Part shown: positions 4,575 to 57,105 of the stretch, one piece after another
Position numbering within the stretch: the first letter of the stretch is position 1
Layout of the letters: every line of letters starts with the position of its first letter
DNA from: Gammaproteobacteria bacterium
GTDB taxonomy: Bacteria; Pseudomonadota; Gammaproteobacteria; CAJXQU01
NCBI GenBank assembly: GCA_965238175.1
Contig: CBDEGZ010000003.1
Location: forward strand, 2,176,001 to 2,240,000
Direction: 5' to 3'
Length of the DNA stretch: 64,000 bases
Program-made: the position numbers and the translations under genes
Notes under the pieces: model-generated
Databases searched by the model: none
What the model was told of the DNA's origin: nothing
What the model saw: only the letters and a program-made list of their open reading frames with translations

Positions 4575-5042
4575 CTACCGTATTAAAGAAGAAAGAATTT
4601 CCTGCACCGATAGCTCACCACTTTTTGAAAATGGAATCTGTCCAACCGACGTTTCCACACCACCACTAAAATTATAATTAGCCTGTCGTTTAGTAAATAC
4701 GCTTTTTGCAGCTTCGATCAATGCATTTTGATCTAATTGCACTGGAACAGTAACTGTTTGCGTTGTATTCGCAGTCAAACTTTTATCACTACTCACATCA
4801 AGACTACCAATAGCTAACTTATTCAAACTCATATTTCCACTCAAACCTGTCAGCGGCAAAGTAAAGGGATTAGGGTTAAATAAGTCGACCTCAAAGACCA
4901 CCTTCTTATCCTGTGCTGAAAACGATTTAAGTCGAATATTTTTCACCTGTGGCGGCTCAATAAACTGTTGAATCATTTCCGAACCACAACCCAATAAACT
5001 CATTGAAAATAATACAATTACAAATATTTTTTTCATCCTCAC
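4575..5042 (-). CDS. LEA type 2 / WHy-domain lipoprotein
   Basis: Lipobox LLGC and NPNPF motif. Confidence 0.8.
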   Translation of the reverse strand: MRMKKIFVIVLFSMSLLGCGSEMIQQFIEPPQVKNIRLKSFSAQDKKVVFEVDLFNPNPFTLPLTGLSGNMSLNKLAIGSLDVSSDKSLTANTTQTVTVPVQLDQNALIEAAKSVFTKRQANYNFSGGVETSVGQIPFSKSGELSVQEILSSLIR

Positions 5043-5119
5043 CTCTCCTTAATTACGGATATTTTAAATGTTTTTCATTAATAAAGTATGAATCCAAGAC
5101 CTTAAATTTTTTGTAACGA

Positions 5120-6424
5120 TTAACTATCTTTTATCTCTAATAGCTCTTTGATTAAATCCATATGCTTTTGTGTTGAACCCTGGTTTCTTTCCACAAGATC
5201 TTTCGCACGTTTTCCTATCGCAAATCGTTCCTGCTCATTTTGTAAATATGATACTATTTTTTCAGTGAGTTCATCCGTATTATTTATACAAACTACTGCA
5301 TTCTCATCAACAAAGGTTTGAAATATTTTTTCTATTTTAAATGTATGTGGTCCCATAATGACGGGAACGCCTAGACTCACAGGCTCAAGTAAATTATGGC
5401 CACCAATTTCTGCAAGGCTACCACCGACAAATGCAACATCTGCCGCGCCATAGCACAACAGTAAATCACCCATCGTATCAGCCAGGTAAACCTGGTTATT
5501 AGCTTGTTGTTGTTCATTATTTTTCTCAAGGCTACGCCGACCAGTTTTAAACTTCGATTTTTCACATAGCGCATATACGTGATCAAACCGCTCTGGATGC
5601 CGTGGTACTAGGATGAGTAAACAGTCTGGGATTTTTTTAATGATTTGTTTGTGTGCCACAAGTACTTTTTCTTCTTCACCTTCGTGTGTACTGGCAGCAA
5701 TCCAGACAGGTCTTTTTGATCCAAAATTTTCTCGCAATTCAAAAGATCTTTTTTCTATATCCACAGGTAGTTTTTGATCAAACTTTAGACTACCAGAAAC
5801 AACTACATTATCTGTTTTAGCTCCCAAAGAAATGATCCGTTTCGCATCTTGATCTGTTTGAGCTGCAACTGCATTCAATTTCGAGAAAGTAGGCTTTGAT
5901 AGTGATGAAAGTCGTTGATAGCCTTTTGCTGATCGTTCTGACATTCTGGCATTTGCTATCATTATTGAAATATTTTTTTGATCACAAACATGGATAAAAT
6001 TTGGCCAAACTTCTGTTTCCATAATGATTATTAAATCTGGATTTGCTTTTCTTATAAAACGACTTATTAAAATAGTTAAATCATAAGGAATATAAAAATG
6101 TTTTATCCGTTTATCAAACTGAACTGGATAACGTCGTGCAACTGTCTCTGCTCCTGTTGGCGTAGTAGTAGTCATTATGATTTGAAGATCAGAATATTCT
6201 GTAAACAACTTTTTAACCAAAGGAGCCGTTGCTTCAACTTCTCCAACAGAAACCGCATGGATCCAGATTACTTTTTGAGAATTATTATTTTTTATTTCAG
6301 GAATAATAGCCAACCGCTCTTTCCAGCGCTGACGATACATTGGATTTAGACGACCCTTAAAATACAACCGTCCAAAAATAACAGGAAGTGCAAGGAAGAG
6401 CAGAAATGAATAAAGTCTGCGCAT
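5120..6424 (-). CDS. waaA: Kdo transferase
   Basis: WIHAVSVGE, ETEVWPN, AASTHEGEE, VPRHPER, GGHNLLEP. Confidence 0.96.
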   Translation of the reverse strand: MRRLYSFLLFLALPVIFGRLYFKGRLNPMYRQRWKERLAIIPEIKNNNSQKVIWIHAVSVGEVEATAPLVKKLFTEYSDLQIIMTTTTPTGAETVARRYPVQFDKRIKHFYIPYDLTILISRFIRKANPDLIIIMETEVWPNFIHVCDQKNISIMIANARMSERSAKGYQRLSSLSKPTFSKLNAVAAQTDQDAKRIISLGAKTDNVVVSGSLKFDQKLPVDIEKRSFELRENFGSKRPVWIAASTHEGEEEKVLVAHKQIIKKIPDCLLILVPRHPERFDHVYALCEKSKFKTGRRSLEKNNEQQQANNQVYLADTMGDLLLCYGAADVAFVGGSLAEIGGHNLLEPVSLGVPVIMGPHTFKIEKIFQTFVDENAVVCINNTDELTEKIVSYLQNEQERFAIGKRAKDLVERNQGSTQKHMDLIKELLEIKDS

Positions 6425-12047: not shown

Positions 12048-12441
12048 TTATTCACCCATACAAATCTGAAGAAATGCCTGAACGGCTCTAGAACGTAAAT
12101 CCTTTTTCGGTGCAATCAGGTTTAAGTGCCACATCAAACCATAAAGATGGATTGATTTTGAGTGGCACTAGTTCTGACGTTGCGTGACGTAGCGCTTGTA
12201 ATGAAGCAAAACTAATTCCAAGTTCAGCTCTTACAGAACCTAAAACGCCAGCAGCACCTTGTACTTCTATGTTTATAGGAGCGGTCTATTCCGTGATCGA
12301 CCAATGTCGATTCAATAAGTTGCCTCGCACCTGATTGAGATTCCCGCCATATGACCTGATACTCATTAAAAACCCTTTAAAGGCACTCCGTCGGGGGTAT
12401 TTTTTGATCAATTCGTGATCATCACGAACAACCAGAACTAT
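12048..12441 (-). pseudogene. Frameshifted duplicate of the 3' ~390 bp of the LysR gene at 27167-28063
   Basis: Near-identical to 27167-27556 in the same orientation, with scattered substitutions and three 1-bp insertions. Confidence 0.93.
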
Positions 12442-13150
12442 GGCTATCGTGCTGCCCAGAAAACACTCTGTTTTGGGTGTAAGCTCCATGTGGTATCTAC
12501 ACAGGCTTCTGTCCATGACATCCATTATCTCAATGATGTTAAAACGCCGTTTTTAGAGGCCCTTAAACGTAAAAATCAAACGAATTTCAAAGCTGTAGGA
12601 ACTAAGCCGCATTGAGTAACATTTGTATTTATTAGTGCTGGCGCTATATATCCAATCGTCGAATTAATTCTTTTGTTGTTATAATTCCGGATGTAATGCT
12701 CAACAGCTGACACAACTGCTTGATGATTAATGAATGATAGTCCGTTTAAATATTCGCTTTTTAGACTTCTAAAAAATCGTTCTTGAACAGCATTATGCCC
12801 AAAACACTTCGTGGGGCAGGCTCTCCCAGCAGTTACCTCTTCTACTCATACTTTGAGTGATGTTGTGCAATGACAATGTTTGTTTGAATAGGCTATCAAG
12901 TCCTACAAGTTTATTAAACCATTGCAACCCTTCAATCCGACACTGAGGAAAGCAAAAAAGCGTATCAGAGACACTTTTCTCGCCGCTGTACCAATTTATG
13001 ATCAGGCGCATTTATGTCAAATCATTTCATGGCTTTTCGACGAAAATACTGTCGAAAATTACAGCGTTAACTATCCTTTAATGGTTCAGTAAATAGATCT
13101 GGAATAACATCAATCACCTGAAATCGTGACCGCCTAAACACACTACGGGT
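12441..13150 (+). mobile_element. IS982-family transposase remnant, interrupted by an IS3 remnant
   Basis: GY.AAQK...GCKLH and ASVHDIHYLNDVK at 12441-12590; RKAKKRI...QFMIRRIYVKSFHGFSTKILSKITALT at 12944-13130; end sequence CACACTACGGGT. Confidence 0.8.
12620..12900 (-). mobile_element. IS3-family OrfB C-terminal remnant carrying a 28-bp insertion at 12796-12823
   Basis: QSMSRRGNCW-[insert]-NAVQERFFRSLKSE...YNNKR..STIGY.AP. Confidence 0.85.
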
Positions 13151-26095: not shown

Positions 26096-26156
26096 ATGCT
26101 AAAAACTGTTGGGAGAGCTACCCTACGAAGTATCTTGGGCATAATAGTGTGATGGA
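26095..26156 (+). mobile_element. Tiny IS3 fragment with a degenerate hairpin insertion at 26115-26141
   Basis: AACTGTTGG-GA-[GAGCTACCCTACGAAGTATCTTGGGCA]-T-AATAGTGTGATGG, translating as NCW[..]NSVM. Confidence 0.75.
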
Positions 26157-26268
26157 TCGTGATGCAAAGAAAATACGTGATGATAAACCTTTATGTATTT
26201 GCTAATTTGAAAACCGAAAAGGGTTTGGAACAGGTTGTCGATTTTATTATGTAAGGAGAGGTTGTTAA
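26149..26268 (+). pseudogene. ureG: 3' remnant of urease accessory GTPase gene
   Basis: VMDRDAKKIRDDKP / YVFANLKTEKGLEQVVDFI matches the UreG C-terminus; one frameshift and a stop. Confidence 0.78.
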
Positions 26269-27166: not shown

Positions 27167-28063
27167 TCACTCACCCATACAAATCTGAAGAAATGCCTGA
27201 ACGGCTCTAGAACGTAAGTCCTTTTTCGGTGCAATCAGGTTTAAGTGCCACATCAAACCATAAGGTGGATTGATTTTGAGTGGCACTAGTTCTGACGTTG
27301 CGTGACGTAGCGCTTGTAATGAAGCAAAACTAATTCCAAGTCCAGCTCTTACAGAACCTAAAACGCCAGCAGCACCTTGTACTTCTATGTTTATAGGAGC
27401 CTCTATTCCGTGATTGACCAATGTCGATTCAATAAGTTGCCTCGCACCTGATTCAGGTTCCCGCCATATAACCTGGTACTCATTAAAAACGCTTAAAGGC
27501 ACTCCGTCGGGGTGTTTTTTGATCAATTCGTGATCATCACGAACAACCAAAACAATTTCATCTTCTCGCCAGGGAAATAGATCATAATCTGCGGGCAAGC
27601 AATCTTTTCCTACCACTCCCTCAATAAAAACAAGATCTAATTCATCAAACTTTTCTAATAATTCCTGGGTACTACCCGTGTTCATAAATATCTGCAGCCC
27701 AGGAAATTGGGTCTGTGCTAACACTAGGTATTTCGGTAGAAAATAGCTGGCGATGGTTGTTGTACTACCGATTCGTAACTCACCAGTATCCATATCCTGG
27801 AGACAACGAACATATTCATTAGATAAGTGTAATGAATATTCTAGTTTTTCCGCATATTCAAGCAGAGTTTTACCCACAGATGTCAATTCAATATGATGTC
27901 CTTTACGGTGGTAAAGAGGCTCCCCTACGCGTTCTTGCAATAACTTGAGCTGACCCGATACCGCAGGTTGACCGAGATGGAGGTGCTCTGCAGCTCGAGT
28001 AACACTTTTCATTCGTGCGACTACTGCAAAAGTAAGAAGTTGGTTAGGGTTAATGTTTTTCAA
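27167..28063 (-). CDS. LysR-family transcriptional regulator, divergent from formate dehydrogenase
   Basis: HTH SVTRAAEHLHLGQPAVSGQLKLLQ; GELRIGSTTTIA; WREPESGAR. Confidence 0.93.
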   Translation of the reverse strand: MKNINPNQLLTFAVVARMKSVTRAAEHLHLGQPAVSGQLKLLQERVGEPLYHRKGHHIELTSVGKTLLEYAEKLEYSLHLSNEYVRCLQDMDTGELRIGSTTTIASYFLPKYLVLAQTQFPGLQIFMNTGSTQELLEKFDELDLVFIEGVVGKDCLPADYDLFPWREDEIVLVVRDDHELIKKHPDGVPLSVFNEYQVIWREPESGARQLIESTLVNHGIEAPINIEVQGAAGVLGSVRAGLGISFASLQALRHATSELVPLKINPPYGLMWHLNLIAPKKDLRSRAVQAFLQICMGE

Positions 28064-51744: not shown

Positions 51745-52076
51745 GAGTGTGTCAATAATTCTGTGTAACTGTCCGGTTTAAATATAATCCGCTAGGCAGT
51801 CTTCGAATTCAATAATAAATCTATTCAGAGCAGATTTCCAATTTCGTATTGGCATCGTCCATTTCTGTGACGCTTGTTTTATCGCAAGATAGACCACTTT
51901 TCTTGCCGCATCATCCGTGGGAAAAAGCTTGCGCTTTTTAATCACTTTTCGAATAACACTATTGAGTGATTCAATCGCATTGGTCGTATAAATCGCTTTT
52001 CGAATATCCGCCGGGTAACAGAATATAGTATTCAGGCTCTGCCAGTGTTTCCGCCAAGTTTTACTAATCTGTGGGC
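51745..52076 (-). mobile_element. IS256-family remnant (transposase C-terminus and right end)
   Basis: YPADIRKAIYTTNAIESLNSVIRK..K.RK.FPTDDA..KVVYLAI..AS.KWTMPIRNWK.ALNRF; terminal GAGTGTGTCAATAATTCTGTGTAACT. Confidence 0.9.
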
Positions 52077-52340
52077 TTTTTTCATTTCTGCGTTTCTCTG
52101 TGCTGGGGTAATATATCCCAATGATGAATGTAGTCGTTTGTAGTTGTAAAAATAGATGTAACTTTTTACGGCAGTAACGACTGAAATATGATTGATAAAA
52201 CTTAACCGGTTTAGTCGCTCAGTTTTTAAGCTCCTAAAGAAACGCTCCATCACACTATTCTGCCCAAAGCACTTCGTGGGGCAGGCTCTCCCAACAATTC
52301 CCCCTTCGACTCATACTTTGAGTAATATTCAGTGCGTTAA
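52077..52340 (-). mobile_element. IS3-family OrfB remnant with a 28-bp insertion at 52261-52288
   Basis: ITQSMSRRGNCW-[insert]-NSVMERFFRSLKTE...YIYFYNYKRLHSSLGYITP. Confidence 0.9.
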
Positions 52341-53247: not shown

Positions 53248-53517
53248 ATGAAAGGAAATATTACCACGAAAATGGACGACTGGCATCGAGCAGATATCGT
53301 CGCTGCGTTGAAAAAAAAGGGTTGGTCATTACGTGGTTTGAGTGCAGCAAACAACTATTCACCAACCGTGCTAAGCGGTGTCTTAAATAGTCCGTGGCCA
53401 AAGGGTGAAAAAATAATTGCAGATGCGATAGGTGTTGCAGCCGATCAGATATGGCCTAGCAGGTATAAAAATGGAGTATCAAACCGACGACCAGGGCGAA
53501 GGAGAAAAGTAGCATGA
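53248..53517 (+). CDS. ner: Ner-like DNA-binding protein
   Basis: DWHRADIVAALKKKGWSL..LS, PWPKGEKIIADAIGV...IWPSRY. Confidence 0.93.
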   Translation: MKGNITTKMDDWHRADIVAALKKKGWSLRGLSAANNYSPTVLSGVLNSPWPKGEKIIADAIGVAADQIWPSRYKNGVSNRRPGRRRKVA

Positions 53518-55682
53518 TGTTCACAAATAAGGATATAGCGGATCAACTAAATATGTCGGTTCGTGGCGTTGCAAAAAAAGCAGGAAGAGAAGGTTGGGCT
53601 TACTCAGAAATGAGTATTCGAGGTGGCAAGCAGCGCCAATACAACCTTGATGATCTACCATTGGATGTTAGAGCAGAAATGACAGGGAGAGTGCTAGAAA
53701 GTGATATGGCGGTTGATGGTGAAAAAGACGCTCAAAAAATCCAGTTTAAAACCTCATTAGAAGAAACATTAAAACAGTCAAAAAATAGCCGTAATTTATC
53801 TGCACTAGAAGATGAAAATAACAGGATAAATCCACGCATAACCATTTTACGGGCCTGGCACACTTTTACTCAAGAATCGGGTAAATGTAAAAGTACCTGC
53901 TCCGCACTATTCGCCGAAATATACAACGCTGGAAACGCCAACCTTCCGGCTGATGTTATGGCGGCGATACCTTCAGTGTCAGGCCCATCTTTATTACGTT
54001 GGGAAGCGCAAATTAAAAAAGAAGGAACTGCTCGGCTTGGTGGTAATTATGGCAATCGAAAAGGTCAATCAAAAGTGGATCAGAATGAAAATTTGAAGCA
54101 ATACATTATCGGTTTCATTTATCAATACCCACATGCAGATGTAAAGCATATTTATGACGGCTTAAAAGCCCGTTTTAGTGATGATAAAACGATTGATTTT
54201 CCAGGTAAGAGATCTGTTCAGCGATGGGTCGCAGCATGGAAGATTGAGAATGCACAAATCCTGACGGCTGTAAGTAATCCTGACGAGTGGAAAAACAAGT
54301 TTATGGTTGCTCATGGTTCATTATCTGACGGTATTGAGCGGCTAAACCAGGTGTGGGAATTAGATTCAACACCGGGCGATATTCAATTAATAGATGGTCG
54401 TCATTCTTTGGTCGGAATTATTGATGTTTATACACGAAGATTGAAAATTGTCGTCAGCAAAACCAGTAAAGCGACAGCTGTAGCAGCAGTACTGAGACGT
54501 AGCTTAATCGACTGGGGTGTGCCTGAAATTGCTAAGACTGATAATGGTGCGGATTACGTCGGATTCCACATAAAAAGATCATTAATAGACTTGGGTATTG
54601 AACAAGTTCTGTGTCCACCATTCCAGCCTTGGCACAAGCCACATATTGAGCGTGCTTTTCGTACTTTTTCACATAGTTTACTTGAATTAATGCCAGGTTT
54701 TTGTGGCCATAATGTTGCTGAAAAATCAGCACTGCAAGCGCGAGACTCATTCGCTGATCGTTTGTTTAAAAAGAATGAAGTAATCGAAATCAAAATGAAC
54801 TCTAAACAGTTGCAGGAATTCTGCGATTCATGGGTTGATCAAATCTATTCTCACGATCAGCACAGTAGTCTAAACGGCAAAACGCCATTTGAAATGGTGT
54901 CAGATTATATTGGCGAAGTTCAAATCATAGAAAGTGAACGAGCACTGGATATTTTGCTTGCTGAGGCACCTGGTAATCATGGTCGTCGAACAGTCCAGAA
55001 AAAAGGCATTCGGATTAAATGGAAAGGTGAGCCAGCAAGTCACTGGTACAGTGCTCCTGAGTTGGCCACACATCTTGTAGGACGCGATGTTCGAGTGACT
55101 TTTGATCCCACAGGTGAAATGGGTCAAATCTTTGTATTCGATGATAGCGGTTTTGTCTGCATTGCTGAATGTCCAGAATTACTTGGTTTAGATCGTCAAG
55201 ATCATGCTGTTGCTGCTAAGACAATTCAACAGCGTTACGTAAACCAAAGCCGTAAGGCAATGAAAGATGCTGCCAAGCAAGCTAATACTCAATCAGCAGC
55301 AGAAGAAATACTGGCTCATGCAGCAAAAAAAGCTGGCAACGTGTCGATGTTTCCGAAGCCGCAAAACACCTATACATCATCAGGACTTGAAGCAGCAAAA
55401 GAAGCTGTGGAAATGGAAAACCGTGAGCCTACACCCTCCCCTGTTAGTGATGAAACTCGCGCTAAATTAGCGAAAGAAATGGCATCACAAAAAACGATCG
55501 AAAATCTACCTGAAACACGCCAACAACGGTATTTACGTTGGTGTGCATTAGATCGTTCTGTCAAAGCGGGGATAGAAATATCAGGTAACGACAAAGTTTT
55601 TTGGAAAGGATACCGAGACACATCGGAGTGGAAATCACTAAGGTTAATGGAAGAAGAGTTCGGGAAATCCGAGCAATCGTAA
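53514..55682 (+). CDS. Mu-like DDE transposase (A protein)
   Basis: N-terminal Mu DNA-binding domain; DDE motifs WELDSTPGD, KTDNGADY, KPHIERAFRTF. Confidence 0.92.
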   Translation: MMFTNKDIADQLNMSVRGVAKKAGREGWAYSEMSIRGGKQRQYNLDDLPLDVRAEMTGRVLESDMAVDGEKDAQKIQFKTSLEETLKQSKNSRNLSALEDENNRINPRITILRAWHTFTQESGKCKSTCSALFAEIYNAGNANLPADVMAAIPSVSGPSLLRWEAQIKKEGTARLGGNYGNRKGQSKVDQNENLKQYIIGFIYQYPHADVKHIYDGLKARFSDDKTIDFPGKRSVQRWVAAWKIENAQILTAVSNPDEWKNKFMVAHGSLSDGIERLNQVWELDSTPGDIQLIDGRHSLVGIIDVYTRRLKIVVSKTSKATAVAAVLRRSLIDWGVPEIAKTDNGADYVGFHIKRSLIDLGIEQVLCPPFQPWHKPHIERAFRTFSHSLLELMPGFCGHNVAEKSALQARDSFADRLFKKNEVIEIKMNSKQLQEFCDSWVDQIYSHDQHSSLNGKTPFEMVSDYIGEVQIIESERALDILLAEAPGNHGRRTVQKKGIRIKWKGEPASHWYSAPELATHLVGRDVRVTFDPTGEMGQIFVFDDSGFVCIAECPELLGLDRQDHAVAAKTIQQRYVNQSRKAMKDAAKQANTQSAAEEILAHAAKKAGNVSMFPKPQNTYTSSGLEAAKEAVEMENREPTPSPVSDETRAKLAKEMASQKTIENLPETRQQRYLRWCALDRSVKAGIEISGNDKVFWKGYRDTSEWKSLRLMEEEFGKSEQS

Positions 55683-55707
55683 AAAAGCCGAAGCGGTAAC
55701 TTCGGCT
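55681..55707. terminator. Hairpin between transposase A and B
   Basis: AAAAA-AGCCGAAG-cggtaa-CTTCGGCT; the U-tract is on the minus strand. Confidence 0.5.
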
Positions 55708-55750
55708 CAGTACAACTTAACGGTCTTAGATGACCATTGGAGAAATAATT

Positions 55751-56479
55751 ATGACACAAAAATTAAACAACACAACTGCACCTTTGCAAAACGTGTCGCT
55801 ATGCGTTGAAGCACTGGATAAGGCGGTTAATAGACCAGAGCATTTGCCAGGACTGGTTTGCTTTCATGGCCCTTCTGGGTTTGGAAAATCGACGGCCGCA
55901 GTCTACGTGGCAAACAAGATGAGAGCTTACTGTGTACAAGCAAACGAATCATGGAAAAAGAAAGCATTTTTAGAAGCCATCTTAAATGAGATGGGCATAA
56001 CCCCGGAAAAGGTAATTTCTAAAATGGTTGATCAAATCTGTGAACAGTTAGCGCTTTCAAATAGACCGTTAATCATTGATGAAATGGATTTTATTGTTGA
56101 GAACAATCTGGTCGAAATTGTTAGGGCCTTATACGAAGGATCAGGAGCTGCAATTCTTCTGATCGGTGAGGAAGCCTTGCCAATTAAGTTATCTAAGTGG
56201 GAACGATTTCACGGACGTATTCTTGACTGGATTCCGGCACAACCTGTCGATATGGATGATGCACTCCACTTAAGAGATTTGTACTGCAAAGATGCAGATG
56301 TTGACGATGGATTAGTTGAATTGATCCATAGCCAAGCAAAAGGATCTGTCCGTCGAGTTTGTATCAACCTTGAGCGAGTGAGTTCTGAAGCCAGAAAAGA
56401 AGGTCAAGAAACAGCCAACGTCAGCTGGTGGGCAAACCGACCTTTATATGTTGGCAAAGCTCCGATTAGAAAACTCTAG
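55751..56479 (+). CDS. Transposition AAA ATPase (B protein)
   Basis: Walker A GPSGFGKS, Walker B LIIDEMD; follows the transposase. Confidence 0.9.
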   Translation: MTQKLNNTTAPLQNVSLCVEALDKAVNRPEHLPGLVCFHGPSGFGKSTAAVYVANKMRAYCVQANESWKKKAFLEAILNEMGITPEKVISKMVDQICEQLALSNRPLIIDEMDFIVENNLVEIVRALYEGSGAAILLIGEEALPIKLSKWERFHGRILDWIPAQPVDMDDALHLRDLYCKDADVDDGLVELIHSQAKGSVRRVCINLERVSSEARKEGQETANVSWWANRPLYVGKAPIRKL

Positions 56480-56499
56480 CAAACATGGGAGGGGAAACC

Positions 56500-57105
56500 A
56501 TGAAAACAAAGTCAAGCCCTTTTGGGTACCGCGAAAATCGCGATCAGATGTGGATCGTTATTCGCGAAAAACAAGAATTCACTATCAATGATATTGAGGA
56601 TGAAACACGCATTATTAGAACTACGATTAGATCATATTTGCAGGGTTTAGTTAGCGGCGGTTACTTACAAATATTGAATCCTGGCGAACGCAAAAAAGCT
56701 GGAAATACTTTTTTGCCAGAACGTTATGAATTGATTAACGATATTGGCGTGGAAGCGCCTCAAGTAGATAGAAAAGGTCAGGAAGTAAACCGAGGCGCTC
56801 GACGTGAACAGATGTGGCGCACAATGAAGGTACTTGGCCAATTCAATTATAAAGATCTGGCGATAAACGCAAGTTTAGAAGATTCGTCGGTAAGCGAAAT
56901 GGATGCCAAGAAATACTGCAACATGCTTTATAAAGCTGGCTTCCTTGCACTGAAAAAACGTGGCAAACCTGGTGGAACACTGAATGTTTATCTTTTCTTA
57001 AACAGCAAGAATACGGGGCCTAAACCACCGCGTATAAAGCAGATTACACAGGTATGGGACGCAAACACTGACAAGGTGATGTATGAATCTGGCGGTGCAT
57101 CATGA
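56500..57105 (+). CDS. Mu-like phage early protein with tandem winged-helix-like repeats
   Basis: Two QMW..(I/M)R...F motifs and TGPKPP. Confidence 0.7.
   Translation: MKTKSSPFGYRENRDQMWIVIREKQEFTINDIEDETRIIRTTIRSYLQGLVSGGYLQILNPGERKKAGNTFLPERYELINDIGVEAPQVDRKGQEVNRGARREQMWRTMKVLGQFNYKDLAINASLEDSSVSEMDAKKYCNMLYKAGFLALKKRGKPGGTLNVYLFLNSKNTGPKPPRIKQITQVWDANTDKVMYESGGAS

Follow-up and report, generated by a model that had tools for sequence, protein, structure and literature searches.

How did nearly identical 28-nt hairpins come to lie within the same codon of diverged IS3 transposase remnants? We addressed this question for a stretch of 64,000 nucleotides (the window), which corresponds to G000:C3:2176001-2240000 and belongs to an IS-rich genome of 3.35 Mb with 40% G+C. 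Three copies of the hairpin lie in the window, each within an IS3 remnant.

Three hairpin copies split one IS3 codon

12635..12864, minus strand: IS3-family transposase remnant, host of copy 1 (BLAST extent against other genomic copies)
12796..12823, minus strand: copy 1, 28-nt hairpin element with a GAGCC tail and a TGCCCCAC-GAA-GTG-TTTT-GGGCA hairpin (exact pattern match, sequence read, fold)
26103..26159, plus strand: IS3 fragment of ~57 bp that holds copy 2 (58 bases align at 86% identity with the copy at G000:C3:2158347)
26115..26141, plus strand: copy 2, decayed, 27 nt, with upper stem TAC-GAA-GTA (sequence read, degenerate pattern)
52076..52332, minus strand: IS3-family transposase remnant, host of copy 3 (BLAST extent)
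52261..52288, minus strand: copy 3, 28-nt hairpin element (exact pattern match, sequence read)

The 28-mer GAGCCTGCCCCACGAAGTG(T/C)TTTGGGCA matched the window exactly at the positions of copies 1 and 3, where none would be expected from 100 shuffles. These two copies differ by a single base, T versus C, in the bulge, and copy 3 is identical to the commonest CAC-type sequence found elsewhere (18 of 176 catalogued instances). Copy 2, GAGCTACCCTACGAAGTATCTTGGGCA, folds poorly (-1.0 kcal/mol), and a BLAST search of the window's genome revealed no similarity of its IS3 fragment past the 58-base stretch. In all three cases TG(Y)TGGGA stands immediately to the left of the insert and TAAT or GAAT immediately to its right. 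Uninserted IS3 copies read tgctgggataatgc, TGCTGGGATAATGC or similar at the same site. Because these uninserted sequences are known, the insert can be seen to split the Asp codon of the C-W-D-N motif, with a register that is ambiguous by one base at the IS3 site, there being an A on both sides.

The surviving parts of the copy 1 host are the end of the rve domain and part of rve_2 (12636-12794, 45.8 bits; Pfam), and the copy 3 host retains rve_2 at 52098-52259 (43.4 bits). In both remnants the rve_2 match begins immediately after the insert, and in IS3s from MAGs the rve match reaches profile position 102/102 immediately before it. The frame that runs from TGG through copy 1 encodes E-S-L-P-H-E-V-F-W-A and then meets TAA. 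The two hosts are 64% identical over 60+60 flanking bases and 70% identical across 230 bases by BLAST, versus 27/28 for their inserts. The initial annotation had placed all three copies within this Asp codon, had remarked that copies 1 and 3 are one base apart in diverged hosts, and had proposed that the insert breaks the transposase frame; each of these observations held, with TAA directly after the insert and the rve_2 part beyond it. For annotation, the element explains a recurrent exact 28-bp frameshift in IS3 pseudogenes.

Two other features were observed near the copies. A 390-bp repeat (95.6% identical by BLAST) lies at 12052-12441 and 27171-27556, close to copies 1 and 2 and in opposite orientation relative to them. 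Adjoining the third IS3 remnant, 53514-57105 on the plus strand carries, in this order, a gene for a 722-aa protein in which rve and Mu-transposase C-terminal domains are present, a gene for an AAA_22 protein and a 206-aa ORF; these genes resemble a Tn7- or Mu-like transposon core.

The hairpin is supported by covariation

The element consists of a 5-nt GAGCC tail and a 23-nt imperfect hairpin with stems of 5 bp (lower) and 3 bp (upper), a 4-nt pyrimidine bulge and a GAA loop. As single-stranded DNA, the 28-mer folds at -4.3 kcal/mol into the structure that had been drawn at the outset. The z-score against shuffles is modest (-1.1 to -1.6), and we accept the hairpin because covariation supports it. 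Among 60 distinct sequences, pairing is present in 96.5% of 480 cells, and pair 12-18 is GC in 29, AU in 28, GU in two and another combination in one, as in CAC-GAA-GTG versus CGC-GAA-GCG. The covariation score was reached by none of 500 shuffles. This count is in part ascertainment, since the two big scans each fixed one paired variant; a pattern open to all four letter combinations at pair 12-18 gave 52 Watson-Crick pairs among 54 matches, so the covariation of which the initial annotation had seen one instance also appears with an unbiased pattern. Pair 7-27 is G-T in 18 of the 60 distinct sequences and in 69 of 176 instances, a frequency that fits RNA better than DNA.

The tail is GAGCC or GGGCC, with G3 and C5 at least 90% conserved among the 60 sequences, and neither GTAG nor CGTC stands beside the stem on either strand. 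By eye, the tail variant (GAGCC or GGGCC), the stem variant and the 3' end show no link to the kind of target, and so nothing points to an internal guide. When four element-rich loci were searched against Rfam 15, the sole matches were to two miRNAs, both at chance level (E 0.19 and 0.3) and both lying outside the element.

The element recurs across Gammaproteobacteria

An exact 20-mer scan that covered one genome per species identified 38 loci in 24 assemblies other than the window's genome. Twenty-three of these assemblies are labelled Gammaproteobacteria or groups within the class, with Tenderia, Chromatiaceae, Porticoccaceae, Spongiibacteraceae, Haliea and Pseudomonadales as named carriers. 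By eye, 34 of these loci also have the 8-nt 5' extension, which is absent from the one Acidimicrobiales match; that match is probably due to chance. Scanning with the CGC-GAA-GCG variant yielded 90 metagenome stretches containing 95 full elements. Among 61 relatives of the Tenderia MAG G062, 11 had matches and five carried 22-47 each, and G064, one of these five, contains 85 right halves versus four for a reversed control. No match was found in a plasmid collection (blastn, 32-base query) or among viral contigs (degenerate 20-mer). The element is found in many marine and sediment Gammaproteobacteria.

One further arrangement is a tandem satellite with a period of ~118 bp (L197, 6780-7290; L129, 2760-2910). 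Each unit holds one element, which is an amplified passenger there.

Filled and empty sites differ by exactly 28 bp

At two loci of G062, comparison of orthologous filled and empty alleles, in genomes that are 87-95% identical, shows a difference of exactly 28 bp and no target duplication. G062 and G068 carry the element at GTAGCCCGG[A...]ATGTAAC, and G064 and G066 have the empty site; at CTTCGCAA[...]TCGTGG, the element is present in G062 and absent from G067. The second of these sites (GCAA^TCG, with the element ending in GGGCG) fixes the register, so that the moving unit is GAGCC...GGGYR, placed after an A. The 28-mer is therefore very probably a mobile micro-element. The unnamed, non-autonomous micro-element that had been proposed from the window is thus supported by exact gain or loss at filled and empty sites, and its 28 nt place it among the smallest bacterial elements for which filled and empty sites give direct evidence of mobility.

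We grouped 147 simple sites into 77 context clusters. Position -1 is A in 65 of the 77 clusters, position +1 is a pyrimidine in 72 (46 T, 26 C), and positions -2 and -3 lean to G or C. The element is inserted in a single orientation relative to the target. No target duplication was found across the 77 contexts or at either polymorphic site, and on these grounds we rejected a classical MITE moved by a DDE enzyme. Though many contexts look palindromic by eye, the folding energy of the 77 reconstructed empty sites does not differ from that of 1364 control windows (p = 0.18), giving no indication of target hairpins. Strand bias with respect to replication in the window's genome (7/10) was not significant.

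The element also enters itself, at two fixed internal points (CCCCA^CG and CGCGA^AGCG). L078 contains a perfect nest three units deep, and in L081 three right-hand pieces stand behind one full unit. Halves also occur as orphans, right ones of 13 and 16 nt and left ones of 12 nt, and these start or end exactly at the internal insertion points. Such nests and sub-pieces would be expected of an enzyme that nicks behind certain A's and can join any pair of the resulting ends. The family thereby provides natural records, at base resolution, of the gain and loss of a single hairpin, of self-nesting and of sub-fragments moving alone; together, these records define the cut points of the responsible enzyme.

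Many kinds of DNA are entered

The IS3 motif had been put forward as the element's target. This proposal was not supported in that form: the motif is one recurrent site among many. The 28-mer also lies in IS4 (L201), IS6 (L206 and L141), IS30 (L049) and IS91 (L032) genes, in a group II intron gene for reverse transcriptase (RT) and maturase (L036), and at a second rve site, the D-N-G motif of L044 (all by Pfam). L047 is a further RT gene that serves as a target. Beyond these, copies were found in MITEs, in REPs, in unique intergenic DNA and within other copies of the element itself. A tally of flanks across the genome and its relatives, as the initial annotation had envisaged, thus confirmed recurrence in the IS3 codon but added other targets. 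In total, at least 16 of the 77 context clusters fall within mobile-element genes of seven kinds, and most other recurrent contexts are MITE- or REP-like repeats. An IS110 target read by eye in L094 was not confirmed by Pfam. Clustering of ORFs near the element returned only the target families IS3, RT, IS6 and IS91, along with the Y1 loci that had been fetched on purpose. Because it lands in transposase and intron genes, the element can be described as a parasite of parasites, and possibly as a brake on them.

The IS3 codon was entered or left repeatedly

From 12 inserted and 12 uninserted IS3 segments (24 in all) we built a tree, leaving out the decayed sequences c514, c1363, c1282, L123 and L022 as well as c2202, which was too short. 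The tree requires five state changes (five to six in bootstraps), and a single clade of all inserted sequences was rejected (AU test, p = 2e-9). Three inserted/uninserted sister pairs have support of 91-100. The element entered or left the same IS3 Asp codon at least five times. Two IS3 genes, at L165 (11039-12016, minus strand) and G067:C116:6379-6675 (minus strand), are open for 322-326 aa right up to the insert, and look like recent hits in otherwise intact elements.

An alternative for the window itself is that the ancestor of one IS3 lineage was hit once, that this lineage spread by mobilisation in trans and then decayed, and that all three window copies inherited the insert. Copies 1 and 3 (c2188 and c2228) are indeed sisters (93/88), in a clade where 6/6 placed IS3s are inserted (93/84), one of them from a Tenderia MAG. 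Moreover, a later DNA search found that, in one congener, the corresponding site of this IS3 group holds a decayed insert of 23 nt, which indicates that the insertion is old in the genus. Nonetheless, the insert is far better kept than its surroundings: 27/28 identity between c2188 and c2228 against 64% for the flanks has P = 6e-5 at the flank rate, and across the window's genome the insert is better conserved than the flanks in 45 of 45 pairs (0.84 versus 0.66). A single ancestral event for copies 1 and 3 is unlikely for this reason. Another inserted IS3 of the window's genome, c3279, groups with an uninserted IS3 (91/91), the inserted IS3s have no intact transposase of their own, and the tree that rejects one inserted clade does so with c2202 and the five decayed rows omitted. 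We consider one ancestral insertion improbable overall. The independent entries inferred in the initial annotation therefore stand for IS3s at large, in which this codon was hit more than once, but less securely for copies 1 and 3, which belong to an all-inserted clade.

The loose target S-S-A^Y does not account for repeated hits on the same IS3 codon. The site DNA, TTGGGA^T, is similar to the 3' end of the element, TTGGGCA^T, and the C-Y-D-N versions of the motif are not. Among 20 rve_2 matches in five element-bearing MAGs, four were inserted, 13 were uninserted and three could not be assessed (4/17 assessable), so the site is far from saturated.

A RAYT-like family appears to co-occur with the element

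In agreement with the initial annotation, no mobiliser was found within the window. Elsewhere, Y1_Tnp genes are present in all five genomes tested, including the window's own, and the long Y1 proteins score 70-77 bits on the NCBIfam model REP_Tyr_transpos (REP-associated tyrosine transposase), which has a cut-off of 80. This RAYT-like family occurs in 11/11 genomes with the element versus 3/9 without (Fisher p ~0.002, by hand), in a comparison of related, non-independent genomes of uncertain completeness that took in nine of the 50 zero-hit genomes; the control family rve occurs in 9/11 and 6/9, respectively. The copy-rich genomes G064, G066 and G071 contain only fragments of the Y1 family or weak matches to it. 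Among 28 loci around Y1 genes or their fragments, none is bracketed by the element; copies near Y1 genes are a degenerate one ~100 nt upstream (L101), one at 1.5 kb (L237) and one at ~8 kb (L106). The suspected tie to RAYT or Y1 genes is suggested by co-occurrence but not by linkage.

The hairpin found ~100 nt upstream of a RAYT-like gene of G062 (L101, ~2383-2410) is GCCGTT-CGC-GAA-GCG-TTTT-GGCTA, a sequence related to the element but distinct from it; it occupies a MITE site in which the canonical element is found elsewhere. In the window's genome, RAYT-like Y1 genes at G000:C3:631104-631823, 925238-925957 and 971160-972014 are flanked by short repeats of their own, ccaaggggtcagcc / ccccttg... 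and gggtcaggccttac / gtaagtcctgaccc, and the latter kind also brackets the IS3 remnant at C3:3039541. These repeats look like a separate REP-like family. We rejected one candidate for an autonomous copy, in which a gene would lie between left and right halves: in L077, an orphan left half and an occurrence of TTTGGGCA 2.5 kb from it proved to be chance, the TTTGGGCA match being inside another transposase frame.

A model for movement and its alternatives

We propose that the element is a non-autonomous, REP-like single hairpin that is moved as single-stranded DNA by a trans-acting HUH/Y1 enzyme, and assign a probability of roughly 45% to this statement as a whole. An enzyme of the REP-associated (RAYT) or IS200/IS605 kind would bind the tail and the bulged hairpin, make one cut 3' of an A in the left flank and another at the hairpin's 3' foot, and rejoin the ends at another S-S-A^Y site. 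This model is drawn from the anatomy of the element and from what PMC8266576 says of related systems, with no Y1 gene flanked by the element; by this analogy, an HUH/Y1 identity for the enzyme is slightly short of an even bet.

The element could instead be mobile through a different kind of mover: an RNA intermediate and reverse transcriptase, a recombinase acting on hairpins, or short-patch gene conversion between repeats. The frequent G-U-type pairs at 7-27 would suit RNA, group II intron RT genes occur in 10 fetched loci, and no Y1 gene is linked to the element. Conversion would be permitted by the flanks of the IS3 site, which are the best conserved DNA between IS3 groups (e.g. 85% over 61 bases between c2158 and c3279), but it cannot put the element into unrelated contexts or unique DNA. 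The RT genes are themselves targets, the element has no Rfam match, and sub-pieces with fixed cut points fit a nick-and-join enzyme better than retro-copying. We therefore regard a non-HUH mover as unlikely.

A more radical possibility is that the host runs the system against transposons. A domesticated RAYT-like enzyme would take the 28-nt hairpin as its whole substrate and paste this cassette into single-stranded replication or transposition intermediates of IS3, IS4, IS6, IS30, IS91, group II introns and MITEs, the pair forming a genome-encoded anti-transposon device. If so, the target enzymes would be truncated, IS3 would be left with a Glu-less protein that binds DNA but is catalytically dead, and seamless excision would make the block reversible. 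The concentration of contexts in mobile-element genes and MITE- or REP-like repeats is consistent with this idea, as is the position of the IS3 insert, which ends the frame after two Asp residues and before the rve_2 part; RAYT genes, according to PMC8266576, also act like single-copy housekeeping genes. However, 13 of the 17 assessable IS3-type sites are untouched in element-bearing genomes, with five open sites kept in G062, and the element also occupies unique intergenic DNA. Frame-breaking inserts persist only in dispensable DNA, which would by itself enrich for repeats and dead IS, and copies on MITEs and IS were multiplied by hitch-hiking. A host device thus appears quite improbable, more so than a non-HUH mover.

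Finally, the insert could be programmed into an active IS3 subgroup, as a recoding signal or regulatory switch, and several inserted IS3s with long open frames up to the insert (326, 299, 270 and 322 aa) would be compatible with this. The reading is close to refuted, because the seven intact identical IS3 copies and a 298-aa copy of the window's genome lack the element, TAA follows the insert directly, the variable bulge provides no conserved slippery site, and the element occurs in many unrelated contexts.

Relation to known small repeats

Under the model of a REP-like hairpin moved by an HUH/Y1 enzyme, the closest known relatives are REPs. In PMC8266576, REPs are palindromes preceded by a conserved motif and interrupted by a bulge in one group, and TnpA-REP cuts them on single-stranded DNA at CT or CA, 5' or 3' of the structure. 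The element shares with them a short, imperfect, bulged palindrome that follows a conserved short motif and is strand-specific, and its 23-nt palindrome, 4-nt bulge and 5-nt tail fall within the description of a REP palindrome (20-50 nt, a conserved motif, a bulge in one group). Dinucleotide cuts 5' and 3' of the structure would yield exactly the element's unit. Copy numbers in the tens per genome within one lineage, and apparent co-occurrence with a RAYT-like family, are further points of likeness. The differences are that the tail is GAGCC rather than GTAG, that the element lacks REP/iREP pairing (BIME, REPIN) and a Y1 gene flanked by copies, that its arrays are nested, and that it lies inside mobile-element genes and inside itself, whereas REPs are mainly intergenic. 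Its single units also come and go at base resolution, a behaviour that the consulted part of PMC8266576 does not demonstrate for REPs. The element works like a REP but lacks the GTAG tag and the REPtron.

For the IS200/IS605 family, the mechanism is likewise outlined in PMC8266576. This family and its short derivatives, PATEs, resemble the element in the absence of target duplication, insertion 3' of a short target, strand specificity, single-stranded DNA hairpins and seamless loss. IS200/IS605 elements, in contrast, have two distinct ends, each with a subterminal hairpin, and a target of 4-5 nt, and the element has one hairpin and a target of about A^Y.

Small palindromic repeats within coding sequences, of ~100 bp or more, are known as Rickettsia palindromic elements and MITEs in genes. 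Rickettsia palindromic elements preserve the reading frame, and classical MITEs carry terminal inverted repeats along with target duplications. The element resembles both in lying within coding sequences, but it shifts the frame and makes no duplication. The small dispersed repeats (SDRs) of Nostoc, which are shorter than 30 nt, reportedly behave as mobile elements without a known mobiliser. They are alike in being very small mobile repeats, but belong to a different phylum and differ in sequence. SDR5 may insert at HIP1 sites, and SDRs are found only in Nostocaceae, according to PMC5861425. A CRISPR repeat was rejected, since copies of the element are solitary or nested head-in-loop and the sole regular array (118-bp period, L197 and L129) is a satellite. 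Literature searches by sequence and by keyword, which did not extend to supplements, found no description of the element; the keywords led to REP/RAYT papers, 11-mers matched only unrelated human primers, and 18-mers gave no match. The element is unnamed, and is REP-like but distinct from REPs, classical MITEs, CRISPR repeats, Rfam families and programmed IS3 features.

The window's genome carries an old relic

The window's genome has 10 copies of the element, all at the same codon of decayed IS3s. Three further matches with three mismatches lie outside IS3 and have no tail, and were taken as chance. The uninserted IS3s of this genome are the seven identical copies, which have a 300-aa frame, the 298-aa copy, and remnants. 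At up to one mismatch, no match was found in six congeners and 54 genomes of the same class, and a search of sequencing runs detected the stretch in its source sample only, with no RNA run among the runs that contain it. The element in this genome is an old relic that persists only in dead IS3s, cutting their transposase short immediately before the rve_2 part. Other insertion sequences are abundant in the same genome: G000:C3 has ~60 near-identical copies (e.g. 4754-5257) of a 353-aa transposase that matches rve and rve_2 weakly, and the genome is in a phase of IS expansion.
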